A stretch of DNA of 39,407 bases, taken from assembly GCF_016903815.1 (NCBI RefSeq), contig NZ_CP069970.1; one strand, 5' to 3'. Within the stretch, counting starts at the first letter, position 1; every line of letters begins with the position of its first letter. The notes under the pieces are model-generated. The model was not told where the DNA came from. It was given only the letters and a program-made list of their open reading frames with translations, and did no database searches. The position numbers and the translations under genes were made by a program. Origin of the DNA: Escherichia coli. Lineage in GTDB: Bacteria; Pseudomonadota; Gammaproteobacteria; Enterobacterales; Enterobacteriaceae. This document shows, piece after piece, positions 4,970 through 25,247 of this stretch.

Positions 4970-5965
4970 ATGGCGACCACAGTAATAGCTGCCTTTAACG
5001 AATTTATGAAAGATACCGTGAATCTCAAAAAGGCAGATACCGATGACGCGCGTGCAAGTCGCGACTGGCTTATCGGTAAGATGAATGATTTTGAGAAGGA
5101 CGATAAATTTCCGGTGAGTTTTCCAGCGATCCATATTGCCTTTGGCTCCTTTGCCAGAAGAACCAAAATCCGTCCGCTTGATGATATCGATCTGATGTTT
5201 GGCTTAACCGGGCAAGGTGCCACCTATACCATCCTGAGTGACCGGATAACTGTAACCTCCTCCGGAGAGGGGTCACGTCTGCACAGTTACCGCCATTCCG
5301 GAGCTGACACCGTCTGCTCCGTCAGAATTCTGAATGCCTTTAAAAACCGCCTGCAGGACATTGCCCAGTACGCCCAGGCTGATATCAGGCGTAACCAGGA
5401 AGCTGTCACGCTGAAACTGGTCAGCAAGGACTGGAATTTTGACATCGTCCCCTGCTTTATTACCAGCGAAGATGCCTTTGGACGGACTTACTACCTGATC
5501 CCCGATGGCAACGGCCACTGGAAGTTTACCGACCCCCGTAAAGACAGGGACAGAGTCACTACTATCAATGTGCAGAATAACGGCAATGTGCTCAATGTCA
5601 TCAGAGCAGTCAAATACTGGCAGCGGCGACCGACGATGCCATCCATGAGTTCCTACCTGCTGGAAACGCTGATTCTGGACTATTACGCTGGCAGGACATC
5701 CTGCTCATCGTTTGTTGACATGGAGCTGGAAGCGCTTTTCCGCCACCTTGGTCAATCCGTGCGGTACTCTGTCAACGATCCCAAAGGCATACAGGGTGAT
5801 ATCAACTCACTTTCAGCCGAGGCACGTAAGGCGATATCGGACAGATGTTATCTCGATGCGCAAAAGGTATCGGAGGCGAGATGGTTTGAAAATAATAAAG
5901 AGTATGAAAAATCCATCAATAAATGGCGCGATGTGTTCGGGCCATTCTTTCCTGTTTACGGGTGA
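4970..5965 (+). CDS. Pol-beta superfamily nucleotidyltransferase, SMODS / cGAS-DncV-like (CD-NTase-like)
   Basis: 331 aa. Active-site pattern G59-S60, then D72-x-D74 (HIAFGSFARRTKIRPLDDIDLMF), third Asp D158 in NFDIVPCF. Good SD (AAAGGA) before the ATG. Confidence 0.65.
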   Translation: MATTVIAAFNEFMKDTVNLKKADTDDARASRDWLIGKMNDFEKDDKFPVSFPAIHIAFGSFARRTKIRPLDDIDLMFGLTGQGATYTILSDRITVTSSGEGSRLHSYRHSGADTVCSVRILNAFKNRLQDIAQYAQADIRRNQEAVTLKLVSKDWNFDIVPCFITSEDAFGRTYYLIPDGNGHWKFTDPRKDRDRVTTINVQNNGNVLNVIRAVKYWQRRPTMPSMSSYLLETLILDYYAGRTSCSSFVDMELEALFRHLGQSVRYSVNDPKGIQGDINSLSAEARKAISDRCYLDAQKVSEARWFENNKEYEKSINKWRDVFGPFFPVYG

Positions 5966-5968
5966 ATC

Positions 5969-6901
5969 ATGAATGCCATTTACACAAACCAGTCGACCAG
6001 AGAAAACATGGATTTACTGTATGCGCAGGCCCGTGTCTACGACAGGGTAAAAAACTGGAACAGACTGAATTTTCTCTTCAGCATCATCGTACCGCTCCTG
6101 CTTTCTTTCGTTACCGTATACAACCGGAGCCGGGAATTTGTCGATTCAGAGTTGTTGTCTTCGCTGTTGGGGTTATATGGACTCCTGGTGCTTACCTTTA
6201 ACATTGTTATCAGTGGACACATCTCGGCTCTGCGCAGGAAGGCAGCCTCAATCCAGGAAATGTACGACTGCCGGGTACTTGGCATCCGGCGTAATGAACT
6301 GAAGGTGGAGGAGATCCCACGGGATGACATCATCCGGGAAGCTGCATATTTTAGAGACAGCCCGGAAAAAGCACGAAAGCGATTTGGCGAAGAGGGGTGG
6401 TACGTCAGTAAGGTGTATGACGCGCCGCAGGCCGTAATGGCGCTCCTTTGCCACGGAAAAAATCTCGGCTGGGACAAATCGCTCAGGGAGGTTCTGCACG
6501 TATTTTATCTTTCCGCTTTTATTGTCTCGCCTGTCGCGATGCTTGTTTACGGCATCGTCATGAAATCCGGGCTGAATGAGATCCTCTTCTATGTGGTGTT
6601 CACACTGCCGGTCATCCGCTATTTCTTGCTTCAGTTTCTGGATAATCGCAGCAGTATGAAAAGAAGCGAGAAGCTGAAAAAGTACGTTGAGAAGGAATTA
6701 TCCGGCATAAGGGTGTCCGGAAGGGCAGAAGAAGAGCAACTGGCTTATACGCTCCGGAATATCCAAGATGAGATGTTTACCTACCGGGCCTCATGTCCGC
6801 CCGTACCCAACGGTATTCAGCTGATAATGAAGCCCAAAAATGAACGAATTTATGTTGATTACTTTGAAACAAATCTGAAGGAGCTGCACCTTCAGAAGTA
6901 A
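5969..6901 (+). CDS. 4-TM membrane protein, putative effector partner of the nucleotidyltransferase
   Basis: 310 aa. ATG is 3 nt after the NTase stop, with an SD inside the NTase 3' end. Hydrophobic helices at ~aa 33-51 and 62-86, two more at ~175-225, a ~90-aa cytoplasmic insert and an ~80-aa C-terminal tail. Confidence 0.55.
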   Translation: MNAIYTNQSTRENMDLLYAQARVYDRVKNWNRLNFLFSIIVPLLLSFVTVYNRSREFVDSELLSSLLGLYGLLVLTFNIVISGHISALRRKAASIQEMYDCRVLGIRRNELKVEEIPRDDIIREAAYFRDSPEKARKRFGEEGWYVSKVYDAPQAVMALLCHGKNLGWDKSLREVLHVFYLSAFIVSPVAMLVYGIVMKSGLNEILFYVVFTLPVIRYFLLQFLDNRSSMKRSEKLKKYVEKELSGIRVSGRAEEEQLAYTLRNIQDEMFTYRASCPPVPNGIQLIMKPKNERIYVDYFETNLKELHLQK

Positions 6902-7037
6902 TCCCTCCTTAGCTCCGGTGTAGGATTTACGTATGCCGGAGCACATCCGATAAACAATTCTTGGTTGCCTGAGTGTCAGCGTAAACCCATAGTCACCTTC
7001 GCCTCAGACGGTTAGTAACACAGGTAATGACTCCAAC

Positions 7038-7541
7038 TTACTGATAGTGTTTTATGTTCAGATAATGCCCGATGACTTTGTCATGCAGCTCCACCGATTT
7101 TGAGAACGACAGCGACTTCCGTCCCAGCCGTGCCAGGTGCTGCCTCAGATTCAGGTTATGCCGCTCAATTCGCTGAGTGTAACGCTTGCTGATTACGTGC
7201 AGCTTTCCTTTCAGGCGGGATTCATACAGCGGCCAGCCATCCGTCATCCATATCACCACGTCAAAGGGTGACAGCAGGCTCATAAGACGCCCCAGCGTCG
7301 CCATAGTGCGTTCACCGAATACGTGCGCAACAACCGTCTTCCGGAGCCTGTCATACGCGTAAAACAGCCAGCGCTGGCGCGATTTAGCCCCGACGTATCC
7401 CCACTGTTCGTCCATTTCCGCGCAGACGATGACGTCACTGCCCGGCTGTATGCGCGAGGTTACCGACTGCAGCCTGAGTTTTTTAAGTGACGTAAAATCG
7501 TGTTGAGGCCAACGCCCATAATGCGGGCTGTTGCCCGGCAT
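7038..7541 (-). CDS. insB: IS1 InsB reading frame (expressed as the InsAB' frameshift fusion)
   Basis: Protein matches the IS1 transposase InsB; overlaps insA as in canonical IS1. Confidence 0.9.
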
Positions 7542-17857: not shown

Positions 17858-19341
17858 TGGCCAGAAGTTGCGTAACGGATCCACGTTGGCGCGAGCTGGT
17901 GGCGCTATATCGTTATGACTGGATTGCTGCCGCTGATGTTTTGTTCGGCAAAACACCTACCTGGCAGCAGGATCTGATTATTGAGTCTGTGCAGGAACAG
18001 GGTAGCAAGACATCTGTTTCGTCTGGTCACGGTACCGGGAAATCAGACATGACTTCTATCATGATCATGTTGTTCATAATCATGTATCCCGGTGCCCGCG
18101 CCATTATCGTTGCGAACAAAATTCAGCAGGTAATGACCGGTATATTCAAGTACATCAAGATAAACTGGGCTACTGCCACCAGCCGTTTTCCATGGCTTGC
18201 TGATTATTTTGTTCTGACAGAAACCGCTTTCTATGAGGTTACTGGTAAAGGTGTATGGACTGTAGTACCGAAGGGCTTTCGTCTGGGAAGTGAAGAAGCT
18301 CTCGCCGGTGAACACGCAGATCATCTTCTGTATATTATCGATGAAGCCTCCGGTGTCAGTGATAGAGCTTTCGGTATCATCACCGGTGCTCTTACCGGAC
18401 AGGATAACCGCATCTTATTGCTGTCACAGCCTACACGCCCAAGCGGCTATTTCTACGATACACACCATAAACTGGCCAAGCGTCCTGGTAACCCTGATGG
18501 CGTTTATACGGCGATCACGCTTAACAGTGAGGAATCACCGTTGGTAACGCCAGCATTTATCAAAATGAAGCTGGCGGAGTACGGCGGGCGTGATAACCCT
18601 ATGTACATGATTAAGGTACGCGGCCTATTCCCTAAATCACAGGATGGCTTCCTTCTTGGACGTGATGAGGTTGAACGTGCAACGCGGCGGAAAGTCAAGA
18701 TTGCCAAAGGATGGGGCTGGCTTGCATGTGTGGACGTTGCTGGTGGTACGGGACGGGATAAGTCCGTTATCAATATCATGATGGTGTCCGGCCAGCGAAA
18801 TAAACGCCGTGTAATCAACTATCGAATGCTGGAATACACAGACGTTACAGAAACGCAGCTTGCCGCCAAAATTTTCGCAGAATGTAATCCTGAGCGATTC
18901 CCAAATATCACCATAGCGATAGACGGCGATGGCCTGGGTAAAGCAACGGCGGATCTGATGTACGAGTATTATGGTATTACCGTACAGCGTATACGCTGGG
19001 GTAAAAAGATGCATAGCCGTGAAGATAAGAGCCTGTACTTTGATAAACGTGCTTATGCCAACGTTCAAGCCGCAGAGGCCGTAAAATCTGGTCGTATGAG
19101 ACTGGATAAGGGTAATGAAACTATTGAGGAAGCGTCGAAAATCCCTGTAGGGATTAACTCCGCAGGTCAATGGAAGGTGATGAGTAAGGAGGATATGAAG
19201 AAAAAACTCAACCTGCACTCACCAGACCATTGGGATACATATTGTTTCGCTATGCTGGCGGATTATGTTCCCCAGGATGAAGTGCTTAGCGTCGAAGACG
19301 AAGCGCAGGTTGATGAAGCTCTGGCATGGCTTAATGAATGA
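17857..19341 (+). CDS. pacB: terminase/pacase large subunit PacB
   Basis: 494-aa ORF translationally coupled to pacA; terminase-like ATPase region. Confidence 0.9.
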
Positions 19342-19344
19342 ATA

Positions 19345-19361
19345 TTTGCTCTAATAAATTG
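19345..19361 (+). promoter_or_regulatory. C1 operator-like site TTTGCTCTAATAAATTG at the pacB 3' end
   Basis: 15/17 match to the C1 operator consensus, 4 nt after the pacB stop and ~190 bp upstream of the c4-like RNA. Confidence 0.5.
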
Positions 19362-19544
19362 TGTTTTTTAACTACCGATGTTACATTGAGCCTGACCTCT
19401 TGCGCCTTGAGGCATTTTCGGTTTATGCTTATCAGGCACCTCATTAAAACGGGTGCCGGGATTGGCCTCCCGCTTAAGTCTAAGGCGATACAGACGCCGC
19501 TCGCGTCTTTTTTTTGTATCGGCGTACACGCACACCTCTACAAT

Positions 19545-19624
19545 GGTGGGCTGTATGGGGCTACCTTCGGGTAGGCTGGTTACCTTGGACGCCAGTAAGG
19601 CCAACTCCGTACAGTCCACCGCCA
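19545..19624 (+). ncRNA. c4: C4-like antisense RNA (tRNA-like acceptor stem with 3' GCCA)
   Basis: 11-bp closing stem GGTGGGCTGTA (19545-19555) pairs with TACAGTCCACC (19610-19620) with one G-U, followed by GCCA. Internal UUCG-tetraloop hairpin CTACC-TTCG-GGTAG. Candidate -10 TACAAT at 19539-19544. Size ~77-80 nt. Internal boxes are complementary to repeated target boxes on both sides. Confidence 0.55.
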
Positions 19625-19628
19625 GCAA

Positions 19629-19672
19629 GATTGGTCTCTTCTGCGGTGGTTACATACCAACGTCTAAGGAGG
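19629..19672 (+). promoter_or_regulatory. icd leader with antisense target boxes (GATTGGTCTC and CGTCTAAGG overlapping the AAGGAGG Shine-Dalgarno)
   Basis: Box CGTCTAAGG (19661-19669) is complementary to RNA segment CCTTGGACG (19583-19591); box TTGGTCT is complementary to RNA AGGCCAA (19598-19604). A second copy of both boxes lies upstream at 19460-19485. Confidence 0.45.
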
Positions 19673-19680
19673 CTGCCAAT

Positions 19681-19902
19681 ATGGCTACTATCCCTACCCC
19701 AACTCATCCTGAATTTATCTGGCGCTTTTACTCCTGCCAAAAACGTCACTATCACTTCGTTATTGCACCGACAGAAGATGAGGCCCGCTCTCAGCTTCCT
19801 GACGCCCCATGTATTTTCTCTGCCCGTTTTTCCACTGATTCACGCAATTCTCTCAGTTACTGGTGCCTCCCTGTTAACGCTTCTGCTCAGGAGGGACTAT
19901 GA
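19681..19902 (+). CDS. icd: Icd-like cell-division inhibitor (73 aa)
   Basis: Strong SD TAAGGAGG 8 nt before the ATG; 73 aa MATIPTPTHPEFIWRFYSCQKRHYHFVIAPTEDEARSQLPDAPCIFSARF... with an Icd-like motif; stop overlaps the next start (ATGA). Confidence 0.6.
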   Translation: MATIPTPTHPEFIWRFYSCQKRHYHFVIAPTEDEARSQLPDAPCIFSARFSTDSRNSLSYWCLPVNASAQEGL

Positions 19903-21017
19903 GAACGTCATTAGTCACCCGTGAAGAGATGATCGAGGCAATTGAACAGCACACTGCCTGTATCAGTACCAGGGATATACCAGGCGTTATTGCCAACTAC
20001 TTCATGATCACCAAACAACTTTACCGGAGAAAGGACAAGAACGCGGTTCACCGTATCCTGTTGTCTGATATCCGCGAATACCTGCTCGAACAGGGTCATC
20101 TGAATTACGCAACCGCCGCAGCCGAAGCACGCAAGGAGGCACACAGAATGAAAGCAACTAACGTTAAATCAGAAAAAATTCATGCACCTTCAGTTCAAGA
20201 ATCGGAGCTGGTGGTTGTTCAGAATCAGTCTGATGAAATTCCCGTTCTGGAATGGCAGGGAGTGCGTGTAGTGACAACCGAGACTCTTGCTAGAGGGTAT
20301 GGGACAGAAACAATCCGTATTCGCCAAAATCATCATGAGAACAAAGTACGCTTTGTTGAAGGGAAGCACTTTTTCAAAGTTGAAGGAGAATCATTGCGCG
20401 AGTTGAAGCACAGAGTAGCTTTAAACTACTCTGTAAAAATTGCTCGCAATGTTCGCTCACTCACCCTCTGGACAGAACGCGGCGCAGCCCGCCACGCTAA
20501 AATGCTCGAAACCGATCAGGCATGGGCATTCTTTGAAAAACTGGAAGACAGCTACTTCCGACAAAAAGAACAGCAACCGATCGCAATCCCCCAGACGCTT
20601 CCTGAAGCCCTACGCCTGGCTGCCGAACTGGCTGAACAAAAGCAACTTCTGGAACAGAAAGCCCACCAGCTAAATCAGCAGCTGGTGGCCGCCGCTCCTA
20701 AAGTCGATTTTGCCGACCGGGTATCAGTAGCTAAAGGGATCCTGATTGGGAATTTTGCAAAGGTTGTTGGACTTAAACAAAACGCGCTGTTTGTCTGGTT
20801 ACGGGAGAACGGCATCCTGATAGCGTCCGGTGGACGTAAAAATGTGCCGTTCCAGCAGTACATCAACGCGGGGTATTTCACGGTGAAAGAAGTGGTGCTG
20901 GATGATGAAGATGGCTACCAGATACGGTTGACGCCTCAATTAACGGGTAAAGGCCAGCAGTGGTTGACGCGTAAACTGCTCGATGCTGGCTTGTTAAAAC
21001 CGGTGGCGGCTGAATAA
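19899..21017 (+). CDS. ant: antirepressor Ant (N-terminal ORF6N/KilA-N-like domain + C-terminal KilAC/ANT domain)
   Basis: 372 aa (~42 kDa) with an in-frame internal Met near aa 83 that would give a ~32 kDa product, like P1 Ant1/Ant2. LEWQGVRVVTTETLARGYG... is ORF6N-type; the C-terminal AAPKVDFADRVSVAKGILIGNFAKVVG... is ANT/KilAC-type. Confidence 0.7.
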   Translation: MRTSLVTREEMIEAIEQHTACISTRDIPGVIANYFMITKQLYRRKDKNAVHRILLSDIREYLLEQGHLNYATAAAEARKEAHRMKATNVKSEKIHAPSVQESELVVVQNQSDEIPVLEWQGVRVVTTETLARGYGTETIRIRQNHHENKVRFVEGKHFFKVEGESLRELKHRVALNYSVKIARNVRSLTLWTERGAARHAKMLETDQAWAFFEKLEDSYFRQKEQQPIAIPQTLPEALRLAAELAEQKQLLEQKAHQLNQQLVAAAPKVDFADRVSVAKGILIGNFAKVVGLKQNALFVWLRENGILIASGGRKNVPFQQYINAGYFTVKEVVLDDEDGYQIRLTPQLTGKGQQWLTRKLLDAGLLKPVAAE

Positions 21018-21049
21018 TGGAAGAATGCCCGGTTGATGCCGGGCATAAT

Positions 21050-21901
21050 TTATTGCGCGCTTTCGGGGTTGTCGTTTACTGGCTGCCCCTTCTTGGTTTT
21101 ACGGCTGCGCGTAACTGATGCGGCTGACTTAACCTTTTTCTCTTCGCGAGTGATGGCAATTTGTTTTTTTACATTTTCAATATCTGCCAGGCGATATATT
21201 TTTGCTTGCGGCCAGCGGTCGCAGATGATCGGTTCTATGGAGTCATAAAGGCTAAATTTTGCTTTTTCGAATTCACCGTTGATGATAATTCCATCACGGA
21301 GAGTTTCATCGCAGATAAACACGCCACACAGTGGCACATGGTAACTAACTGATTTACCATCATTGTAGTTAGGGCTACTGGAAATGTAGTGGACGCGCAG
21401 CATTGTTTCGCTAAAGCCGTGTACGCGCATACGGAATTTTTCATCCTCCGGGTACTGCTTCATTAGCTCTTTTGTTGCTTCCAGGTTCTCTATGTATTTC
21501 GCACTGTGCTCATTGATCCCCGCGCTTTTTTGGATGCGAATGTCCTTATCAATCAGATGAATAATGCGGCCAGCGGTCATGTTGACGCTGTTCACAGCTT
21601 CTGTCTGATAAGTTGTAACCTTACGCACACCGCGAAGGATGTTAGGCACTGGATATAAAATAGTCTTTGGGATATTGAGGTCTGGGTACTGTTCCAGTTC
21701 CCGCGCCATTAAAGTCCATTTATCAATTTCAGCCTGAATGCTGTCAGTTTCTTTGAACGGTAGAACGACAACCGGGCGTACAGGACGACCGTCGCTGGCT
21801 GTATCAACGTGTTGGGCGCGTGCAACAGCTTTTTTTAGAAAGAGATCCCTGAAGCTGACGAACTCCTGGTACAGTTGTTCGCCGTAGACATAATTTATCA
21901 T
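21050..21901 (-). CDS. c1: C1 repressor of lysis (primary immunity repressor)
   Basis: 283 aa, MINYVYGEQLYQEFVSFRDLFLKKAVARAQ..., recognised as P1 C1. Confidence 0.95.
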   Translation of the reverse strand: MINYVYGEQLYQEFVSFRDLFLKKAVARAQHVDTASDGRPVRPVVVLPFKETDSIQAEIDKWTLMARELEQYPDLNIPKTILYPVPNILRGVRKVTTYQTEAVNSVNMTAGRIIHLIDKDIRIQKSAGINEHSAKYIENLEATKELMKQYPEDEKFRMRVHGFSETMLRVHYISSSPNYNDGKSVSYHVPLCGVFICDETLRDGIIINGEFEKAKFSLYDSIEPIICDRWPQAKIYRLADIENVKKQIAITREEKKVKSAASVTRSRKTKKGQPVNDNPESAQ

Positions 21902-24686: not shown

Positions 24687-25247
24687 ATGAAAACAATCGA
24701 ACAAAAACTTGAACAGCGCCGCGAGTGGCAGAAGGCTGCCAGAGAACGAGCGATCGCTCGGCAACGGGAAAAGTTGGCTGACCCCGCTTGGCGAGAATCG
24801 CAATATCAGAAAATGCGGGATTCTATCGACCGCCGTATCGCTAAACAGAAAGAGCGCCCACCAGCCAGCAAAACGCGGAAAAGCGCGGTAAAAATAAAAT
24901 CTCGTGGCTTGAAGGGGAGAACACCAACGGCGGAGGAACGGCGCATCGCCAATGCTCTTGGCGCTCTCCCCTGCATTGCCTGCTACATGCATGGAGTAAT
25001 ATCTGAAGAGGTATCTCTGCACCATATCTCCGGTCGTACCGCGCCGGGTTGTCACAAAAAGCAATTGCCCCTTTGTAGATGGCACCACCAGCATGCAGCA
25101 CCGGCTGAAGTAAGAGAAAAATACCCCTGGCTGGTCCCTGTTCATGCCGATGGTGTGGTTGGAGGCAAGAAAGAATTCACCTTGCTGAACAAGTCAGAGA
25201 TGGAGTTGCTGGCTGACGCCTATGAGATGGCAAACATCATGCACTAA
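24687..25247 (+). CDS. ref: Ref, recombination enhancement function (HNH-type endonuclease)
   Basis: 186 aa from MKTIEQKLEQRREWQKAARER...; Cys/His cluster CIACYMHG...HH...CRWHH. The track ORF start at 24582 lies inside the operator and is rejected. Confidence 0.9.
   Translation: MKTIEQKLEQRREWQKAARERAIARQREKLADPAWRESQYQKMRDSIDRRIAKQKERPPASKTRKSAVKIKSRGLKGRTPTAEERRIANALGALPCIACYMHGVISEEVSLHHISGRTAPGCHKKQLPLCRWHHQHAAPAEVREKYPWLVPVHADGVVGGKKEFTLLNKSEMELLADAYEMANIMH

Follow-up and report, generated by a model that had tools for sequence, protein, structure and literature searches.

The window analysed here, the whole 39,407-nucleotide stretch of Escherichia coli contig NZ_CP069970.1 (assembly GCF_016903815.1), comes from a P1-like plasmid prophage. 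Its genes follow each other in the order phd, doc, lpa, pacA, pacB, c1, coi, cre and ref, with c1 and coi on the minus strand. Between pacB and c1 lies a module composed of a C1-operator-like site, a leader of the IsrK type, the c4 RNA gene, icd and an overlapping ant gene. Taken together, these elements very probably constitute a complete antisense immunity module of the C4 type, similar to immI of phage P1. In P1 itself, pacB and c1 are separated by 24 bp without an operator between them, and positions 19342-21049 are therefore regarded as a 1.7-kb insertion in this plasmid prophage. All features described below lie on the plus strand unless stated otherwise; the right border of the insertion is formed by the c1 repressor gene on the minus strand (21050..21901).

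The insertion encodes two proteins. The icd gene (19681..19902) specifies 73 amino acids, is 80% identical to P1 Icd at the protein level and is named 'host cell division inhibitor Icd-like protein' in RefSeq. The ant gene (19899..21017) encodes an antirepressor of 372 amino acids with ORF6N and ANT/KilAC domains, which is 56% identical to P1 Ant1 and differs from it in the middle part, where the P1 domain is replaced by ORF6N. The ATG of ant at 19899 overlaps the stop codon of icd in the sequence ATGA (19899-19902). In the examined records that carry the module, its RNA genes are unannotated.

The C4 RNA, the IsrK-type leader and the target boxes

The C4 antisense RNA family of Rfam (RF01695, clan CL00128) matches positions 19539-19626 with 75.9 bits against a gathering threshold of 45, covering model positions 1-87 (E = 2.9e-13). 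The mature molecule is predicted at 19545..19624, with the ends transferred through the Rfam alignment from the c4 annotation of P1 (1047-1123). It starts at AAU/GGU, the slash marking the cut, and consists of a 16-bp closing stem, a UUCG hairpin, the b' hairpin, the a' joint and a 3' G-CCA. The initial annotation of the region had recommended RNA folding as a check, and the predicted RNA indeed folds far better than its shuffled versions (-41.8 kcal/mol, z = -3.67, with 0 of 200 shuffles folding as well). In this fold, which is both the minimum-energy and the centroid structure, the b' recognition sequence CCTTGGACG (19583..19591) occupies a 10-nt hairpin loop, while the a' segment AGGCCAA (19598..19604) lies in an 8-nt unpaired joint that costs 0.4 kcal/mol to open. 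The 3' GCCA is free, and the closing stem is longer than the 11 bp first described. Across 13 aligned loci, the closing stem and both hairpins are paired in 100% of cases, with 12 compensatory pairs; in the closing stem alone, 7 of 16 pairs are compensatory and all cells are paired.

The likeness of C4 to transfer RNA is limited to the acceptor-like stem and the RCCA end; a scan of the window with Rfam returned C4 and IsrK only, without any match to tRNA or tmRNA. The sequence determinants of RNase P cleavage are all present: A-2 and U-1 before the cut and G+1, G and U after it are invariant in the 13 loci, and G+1 is paired with C. A published summary covers both the processing of C4 by RNase P at GGU and what a' and b' do (PMC5320573), and the interaction of an RCCA end with the RNA of RNase P has been described as well (PMC12710915). 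An R-CCA encoded in the genome directly after the stem occurs in 12 of the 13 aligned IsrK-type loci, including the window. The initial annotation regarded a discriminator base followed by CCA as the feature of the P1 precursor. This is only partly right because P1 and P7 encode A-CC-U at that place; the GCCA of the window is real, and the part in common is RCC.

Directly upstream of c4 lies a leader or small RNA of the IsrK family (19436..19513). The Rfam model of the IsrK Hfq-binding RNA, RF01394, matches it with 60.8 bits against a gathering threshold of 50 over model positions 1-77 (E = 9.2e-11), and the match includes the terminator hairpin and the U-run. The leader is predicted to form hairpin 1, hairpin 2 with the a1 box in its loop, a single-stranded b1 box and an intrinsic terminator (19492..19515). 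The latter was also found by a terminator scan and consists of AGACGC-CGCTC-GCGTCT, with a 6-bp stem, followed by T8. An IsrK match stands directly 5' of C4, about 18-45 nt away, in 10 of 10 IsrK-type phages examined. Thus, the duplicate boxes noticed upstream of c4 do exist, yet they are not simply a second messenger target, since the RNA on which they are located belongs to the IsrK family and is closed by a strong terminator before c4.

The recognition segments of C4 are complementary to boxes on both sides of the gene, and direct reading confirmed all box sequences and coordinates that had been proposed. The upstream box GATTGGCCTCC (19460..19470) contains a1, TTGGCCT (19462..19468), which pairs perfectly with a' over 7 bp. 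The neighbouring box AAGTCTAAGG (19476..19485) contains b1, GTCTAAGG (19478..19485), and forms 8 bp with b', one of which is G-U. Downstream of c4, the box GATTGGTCTC (19629..19638) contains a2, TTGGTCT (19631..19637), which forms 7 bp with a', including one G-U. Finally, the b2 box CGTCTAAGG (19661-19669, within a feature reaching to 19672) forms a duplex of 9 bp with b', also with one G-U. It overlaps the Shine-Dalgarno sequence of icd, AAGGAGG (19666..19672), located nine bases before the icd ATG at 19681. The order of the boxes suits simultaneous antiparallel pairing, and both the complementarity and the overlap with AAGGAGG were borne out, the former by direct reading as well as by the covariation described below.

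Duplex energies were compared with those of 2000 dinucleotide shuffles of the target. The b'-b2 duplex reaches -14.5 kcal/mol, and 15 of 2000 shuffles are as good. For a' and b' together, the downstream target gives -23.3 kcal/mol (40 of 2000 as good, 21 of 2000 in the right order) and the upstream target -24.0 kcal/mol (22 of 2000, and 6 of 2000 in the right order), so that the summed duplexes beat 98-99% of the shuffles. As this advantage is modest, the duplex energy in a single window cannot carry the argument, and covariation was used for that purpose. The complex of C4 and leader was evaluated through opening and duplex energies rather than with RNAcofold, because kissing (loop-loop) pairs are pseudoknots beyond the scope of that program. 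In this analysis, the upstream boxes are cheap to open (1.5 kcal/mol for a1 and 1.6 for b1) compared with a2 (4.9) and b2 (8.3), and the a1-a' duplex is stronger than a2-a' (-10.1 versus -7.4 kcal/mol).

An additional structure is predicted in the unprocessed transcript. The 3' arm of C4, CCACCGC (19616-19622 and inward), can pair with GCGGTGG of the icd leader (19643-19649), forming an alternative hairpin (19616..19649) with a2 in its loop. This hairpin is part of the minimum-energy fold of the full precursor and is supported by covariation, with compensatory changes in 8 of its 13 pairs and pairing in 87% of cells. It could form only before 3' processing.

Covariation among related loci

For comparison, 83 loci were gathered, those of P1, P7, JL22 and phiON-2011 together with 79 from viral contigs detected by means of Icd. 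They contain 15 distinct C4 sequences and 13 combinations of loop and linker, and the differences lie almost only in a' and b'. In all 36 distinct locus variants, a1 and a2 are complementary to a', and b1 and b2 to b'. The same matching is found in 10 IsrK-type phages, among them six more distant ones (SfV, phiP27, Hafnia phage yong2, Enterobacter phage Tyrion, an Stx1a phage and PhiR47_1) and Gifsy-1. Overall, at least 20 distinct specificity combinations with co-changing boxes occur among P1, P7, Stx, SfV, Gifsy-1 and other phages.

Pairs were counted on an alignment of 13 loci (A2). Both sides changed in 5 of 7 pairs of a':a2 (98.9% of cells paired), in 7 of 9 pairs of b':b2 (83.9%), in 5 of 7 pairs of a1:a' (98.9%) and in 6 of 8 pairs of b1:b' (100%). 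The two whole structures are paired in 92.9% and 90.2% of cells, a proportion that drops to 35-47% once the partners are shifted against each other by 1-3 columns. Compensatory changes affect thirty pairs, and the observed covariation was attained by 0 of 500 shuffles. The terminator helix is paired in 62% of cells, and MAFFT appears to set these stems out of register; this value is not read as absence of the helix because Rfam aligns the terminator in every locus.

Specificity was further assessed in a 15 x 15 matrix of duplex energies (a' plus b'), in which the 13 alleles of these loci were combined with those of Gifsy-1 and of a second, canonical immI region discussed in the next section. 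In each of the 15 rows, the cognate leader ranks first or shares the first rank, for upstream and downstream targets alike, with a mean of -20.8 kcal/mol for cognate pairs versus -12.0 +/- 3.3 for non-cognate ones. Thus, the boxes, whose conservation in related elements had been named as a check, are found to covary with a' and b'. Judged from the aligned sequences, the comparison is decisive for the pairing being more than chance.

Related systems and genomic setting

One of the closest known systems is immI of P1 and P7. The same RNA build (Rfam RF01695) is found there and in the window, that is, a long closing stem, a tetraloop hairpin, a b' loop and an a' joint. The order a1, b1, c4, a2, b2, icd and overlapping ant is shared as well. 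In both systems b2 covers the Shine-Dalgarno sequence of icd, and the C1 operator upstream in P1/P7 may have its counterpart in the operator-like site of the window. The GenBank record of P1 annotates Oc4, two promoters, a1, b1, c4, a2, b2, icd and overlapping ant1. The comparison with the P1 and P7 boxes proposed in the initial annotation thus revealed the same scheme of a' and b' facing a1, b1, a2 and b2, and the sequence at the presumed RNase P site is common too (AAU/GGU or UAU/GGU). The specificities themselves differ: a' is CTGTCAA and b' CACTAAC in P1, CTGCTAA and CACAATC in P7, and AGGCCAA and CCTTGGAC in the window. Further differences concern the encoded 3' tail (ACCU in P1 and P7, GCCA in the window) and the leader, which in P1 is of the Rfam c4-a1b1 type without a scan-positive terminator and in the window of the IsrK type with a canonical one.

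A second relative is the isrK-orf45-anrP-isrJ region of the Salmonella prophage Gifsy-1 (RF01394). Upstream of its antirepressor gene anrP, Rfam finds IsrK, a c4-a1b1 match that overlaps IsrK, and C4, one after the other. From this arrangement it follows that IsrK corresponds to the a1/b1 leader, and orf45/STnc1160 to C4. The leader belongs to the same family as that of the window, with a1 in the loop of hairpin 2, a single-stranded b1 and a terminator, and the C4 match begins about 25 nt downstream of it. As in the window, a2 and b2 extend over the ribosome-binding site of the next gene, which in Gifsy-1 is the antirepressor gene; icd is missing, and b2 lies directly over the anrP site. The alleles (a' ACGCCAA, b' CGGTGAT) are unlike those of the window, and the host phage is lambdoid rather than P1-like. 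Hershko-Shalev et al. 2016 (PMC4825925) described a terminated IsrK of 77 nt together with a read-through mRNA in this system, a more than 100-fold increase in anrP translation by IsrK supplied in trans, the inactivity in trans of the a1-loop mutants G28A and G31A, and a processed STnc1160 of about 80 nt that is complementary to IsrK. Their model invokes orf45 translation and cis structures, and cites neither C4 nor RNase P. The alternative hairpin of the window, together with pairing of a1 to a' and b1 to b' in cis, resembles 'structure A' of that study.

Tandems of IsrK and C4 also precede antirepressor, Rha, Ash or Bro genes in Stx2a phages (e.g., phiON-2011), SfV, phiP27, yong2 and Tyrion, with the layout and box positions of the window. 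These lambdoid and P22-like tandems differ from it in downstream effectors and host phage types, and have their own a'/b' alleles. Such tandems were noted in APSE phages (PMC7313666); both that paper and a 2025 review treat IsrK and C4 as unrelated. Several records draw coding sequences across the two RNAs, namely SfV orf37 (L087, 345-1181), the PhiR47_1 'Rha' (L092, 345-1493), the yong2 'Ash' (L089, 479-1162) and an Stx1 'Ant' (L091, 477-1499). Their starts are probably over-extended, and the RNAs left unannotated, because C4 is closely followed by a conserved GGAGGCTGCCATCATGG start. In phiON-2011, a match to sRNA-Xcc1 of Rfam (L004, 3023-3106, 79.6 bits) lies inside the 'antB2' open reading frame (ORF), directly upstream of antB1 and about 0.9 kb past IsrK-C4. 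Here, too, a small structured RNA stands before a regulatory gene; this second one has a closing stem and the 3' tail CACCC. An sRNA-Xcc1 before an ORF6N gene was also noted in APSE phages (PMC7313666).

The module does not occupy the canonical immI site, which in P1 lies between sim and kilA-repL. This difference concerns position and not mechanism; the module represents an additional copy, for which the site of insertion is the interval from pacB to c1. With blastn, only the icd part of the module matches P1 and P7, and the closest matches of the leader and c4 part are Stx2a lambdoid phages (78-79% identity). By these alignments the leader and c4 of the inserted module have their relatives among lambdoid phages, and the module carries its own putative C1 operator. 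Previous reports described ant and two short ORFs inserted between pacB and c1 in pTZ20_1P and RCS47 (PMC6906374), and a second c4-icd region in D6-like plasmids (PMC6799933); the RNAs described here were noted in neither. The 581 bases at 19330-19910 recur without any difference in several plasmids of about 97 kb (100% identity) and at 99.5% identity in phage vB_EcoM-673R5, and at least 274 plasmids in PLSDB cover at least 80% of this query.

One of the plasmids identical over the queried 581 bases, NZ_CP027133, also retains a canonical immI with c4-a1b1, C4, icd, ant, kilA and repL. Its a' (CTGCTAA) and b' (CATTCGTG) differ from those of the window. Cross-pairing between the two modules yields -14.5 and -8.6 kcal/mol, which is the non-cognate level, versus -22.5 and -19.6 kcal/mol for the cognate pairs. 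In the same plasmid, a match to the sok antitoxin RNA of Rfam adjoins the repL/kilA region, and three tRNA genes are found (24918-25092 and 5849-7506, outside the window). Double loci of another kind occur in IMG/VR, where several viral contigs contain a pair of c4-icd loci separated by a few kb (L013/L073, L061/L079, L056/L080 and L022/L077); the distance is about 6-7 kb in three of the pairs and smaller in L022/L077. These loci run in opposite directions in three pairs and in the same orientation in L022/L077, and one belongs to the scaffold of the window and JL22, the other to the P1 scaffold. They differ in this respect from the separation of about 45 kb between the modules of NZ_CP027133.

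Upstream of the leader, the operator-like site TTTGCTCTAATAAATTG (19345..19361) has two mismatches to the P1 C1 operator consensus, which we take to be ATTGCTCTAATAAATTT, and would be bound by C1. It belongs to the insertion, since P1 has only 24 bp and no operator between pacB and c1, and its layout is like that of Oc4/Op51 of P1. A scan for 17-mers with at most three mismatches found eight such sites in the window (16039, 19345, 21996, 22460, 22543, 24096, 24572 and 34761), compared with 0.14 expected by chance, and this number is consistent with a C1 regulon of the P1 type across the window. Two candidate promoters were recognized by eye. One, TTGTGT-17-TACATT (19359..19387), overlaps the operator-like site, falls below the criteria of the promoter scan and may be the analogue of P2c4/P51a of P1. 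The other, TTGCGC-18-TATGCT (19400..19429), ends 6 nt 5' of the start of the IsrK model, and in Gifsy-1 the sequence TTGACA/TATATT stands at the same relative place.

Proposed mechanism and alternative explanations

The textbook mechanism of P1 and P7, in which C4 blocks the ribosome-binding site of icd and keeps ant silent, is supported for this module by analogy. It is adopted with high confidence because the anatomy of the region equals that of immI as annotated in the P1 record. The foundation established here comprises family membership, fold, complementarity, covariation, synteny, and boxes unlike those of the canonical immI of the matching plasmid. Transcription would start upstream of 19436, where an operator-like site lies at 19345-19361, and would pass through the IsrK-type leader with a1 and b1. 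Part of the transcripts would end at the terminator (19492-19515), and the rest would be read through into c4. Cleavage by RNase P between U19544 and G19545, followed by 3' trimming, would free an RNA of about 80 nt. The freed C4 would then pair with the leader of the same operon, through a' (the joint) with a2 and through b' (the loop) with b2. As b2 overlaps the Shine-Dalgarno sequence, icd would stay untranslated, and as ant starts inside the icd stop codon, it would be switched off by the loss of translational coupling and, as in P1, by Rho-dependent polarity. With Ant off, C1 would remain active and the prophage lysogenic. For processing, repression in trans, polarity, control by C1 and coupled translation of ant, this scheme draws on the P1/P7 and Gifsy-1 literature.

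Four observations weigh against this mechanism. The scan of the plus strand at 19300-19950 detected no promoter that meets its criteria, the promoters named above being weak matches found by eye. The terminator between promoter and c4 must be read through for C4 to be made at all. The a'-a2 duplex (-8.8 kcal/mol in the shuffle comparison), which contains a G-U, is by itself no better than chance, as 887 of 2000 shuffles are as good; in this part, the shuffle check suggested in the initial annotation failed, while b'-b2 and the summed duplexes passed it modestly. Moreover, base pairing is predicted in the free leader between GGUCUCUU (19633-19640), which starts in the 3' part of a2 and runs past it, and AGGAGGCU (19667-19674); this would hide the icd Shine-Dalgarno sequence even without C4. 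Because that region is predicted to be already paired and b2 costs 8.3 kcal/mol to open, C4 may not be the sole brake on icd. The anti-Shine-Dalgarno pairing is probably allele-specific, since a2 varies and the Shine-Dalgarno sequence is fixed.

The function of the upstream boxes allows another explanation, which may extend the P1-type mechanism and does not exclude or compete with it. The boxes could be the active part of a separate, terminated IsrK-like RNA (19436 to about 19513) that serves as a decoy for C4, or for a' and b' of the precursor, and thereby frees the icd ribosome-binding site, so that the ratio of terminated leader to processed C4 would set the switch. This is plausible, although the balance tips somewhat against it. 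The IsrK match includes a canonical terminator with a U8 run, and P1 has no scan-positive terminator at this position. The a1 box is presented by a hairpin loop, b1 by a single-stranded stretch, and both are cheaper to open than a2 and b2. In addition, a1 pairs perfectly with a', in a stronger duplex than a2 with its G-U, and the covariation of a1 and b1 with a' and b' is as strict as that of a2 and b2. The Gifsy-1 IsrK, which is located directly upstream of the C4 match and is overlapped by c4-a1b1 of Rfam, points the same way through its published properties (the 77-nt terminated form, activation in trans, inactive a1-loop mutants and the complementary STnc1160 of about 80 nt; PMC4825925). 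On the other hand, the authors of that study invoke the opening of a cis structure by IsrK and orf45 translation rather than titration of C4, and co-expression of orf45/STnc1160 did not relieve IsrK toxicity. Furthermore, each read-through transcript would free one a1/b1 leader per C4, and net titration hinges on RNA stabilities. A broader form of this idea, to be taken as tentative and rather doubtful, is that such a prophage has two orthogonal antisense locks on two antirepressor operons, the canonical immI and the insertion between pacB and c1, with the terminated IsrK-type leader as an anti-antisense RNA that titrates C4 via a1 and b1. The same logic would make orf45/STnc1160 the C4 of Gifsy-1 and IsrK its a1/b1 decoy.

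A purely conformational switch in cis, following the structure A/B model of Gifsy-1, would dispense with a diffusible RNA: the leader boxes would pair with a' and b' in the same transcript, the icd leader would be bound by the 3' arm of C4, AUG 19543 would serve as the translation start, and ant would be driven by coupling. The minimum-energy fold of the 265-nt precursor does contain the cis pairings a1:a' and b1:b' as well as the hairpin of the 3' arm and the leader, in which 8 of 13 pairs are compensatory. Additionally, the frame from 19543 is open into icd here as well as in SfV, PhiR47_1 and yong2, and mutations of the orf45 AUG lower activation in Gifsy-1 (PMC4825925). Still, AUG 19543 is not preceded by a Shine-Dalgarno sequence, and in P1 that frame is interrupted by a TAA within b'. 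The invariant 16-bp closing stem with U-1/G+1/RCCA is what is expected of a processed and released RNA, and a purely cis function of a1 and b1 needs no strict conservation of a2 and b2. According to literature summaries and, reportedly, to the work of Citron and Schuster (1990), the C4 RNA of P1 and P7 acts in trans and defines heteroimmunity. A switch acting in cis alone is thus improbable. AUG 19543 itself lies in AUGGUGGG, within the 5' arm of C4, and is the analogue of the 'orf45' start of Gifsy-1; the icd AUG follows 46 codons later in the same frame, no stop codon intervenes (19543-19902), and an N-terminally extended Icd is formally possible.

The remaining explanation, that the boxes match by chance or that the region codes for small proteins, is hardly credible. 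Its basis is that the boxes are only 7-9 nt long and a'-a2 is not significant alone, that mechanically derived ORFs span the region (19338-19574, 19453-19902 and, on the minus strand, 19368-19628), and that several phage records annotate coding sequences over the homologous region. It is refuted by the covariation counts, as every helix and all four intermolecular pairings contain compensatory changes, and the variation sits in a' and b' and is mirrored exactly in the targets. The Rfam E-values (2.9e-13 for C4 and 9.2e-11 for IsrK) also speak against it, as does the frame over the IsrK part, which is not kept between the window and SfV. The open frame running through C4 into icd was likewise rejected as a primary coding function, given the P1 stop in b' and the RNA-compensatory variation.

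The mechanism of the C4 module is already known and has been textbook knowledge since 1990, so the finding mainly confirms that such a module can be recognized from raw sequence; what is new is the a'/b' allele and the extra copy at a non-canonical site. Of side interest are the equivalence of IsrK with the a1/b1 leader and the prospect that one prophage has two antisense locks whose boxes differ. The homology of the IsrK leader to a1/b1 provides a testable function for the long-unexplained a1/b1 sites and offers a simpler reading of the IsrK data from Gifsy-1. If the two-lock and decoy explanation is true, it would join the literatures on IsrK and C4, which have been treated as unrelated. Moreover, the a'/b' alleles represent a combinatorial set of specificities that could predict mutual immunity or cross-induction among P1-like plasmids and lambdoid prophages.

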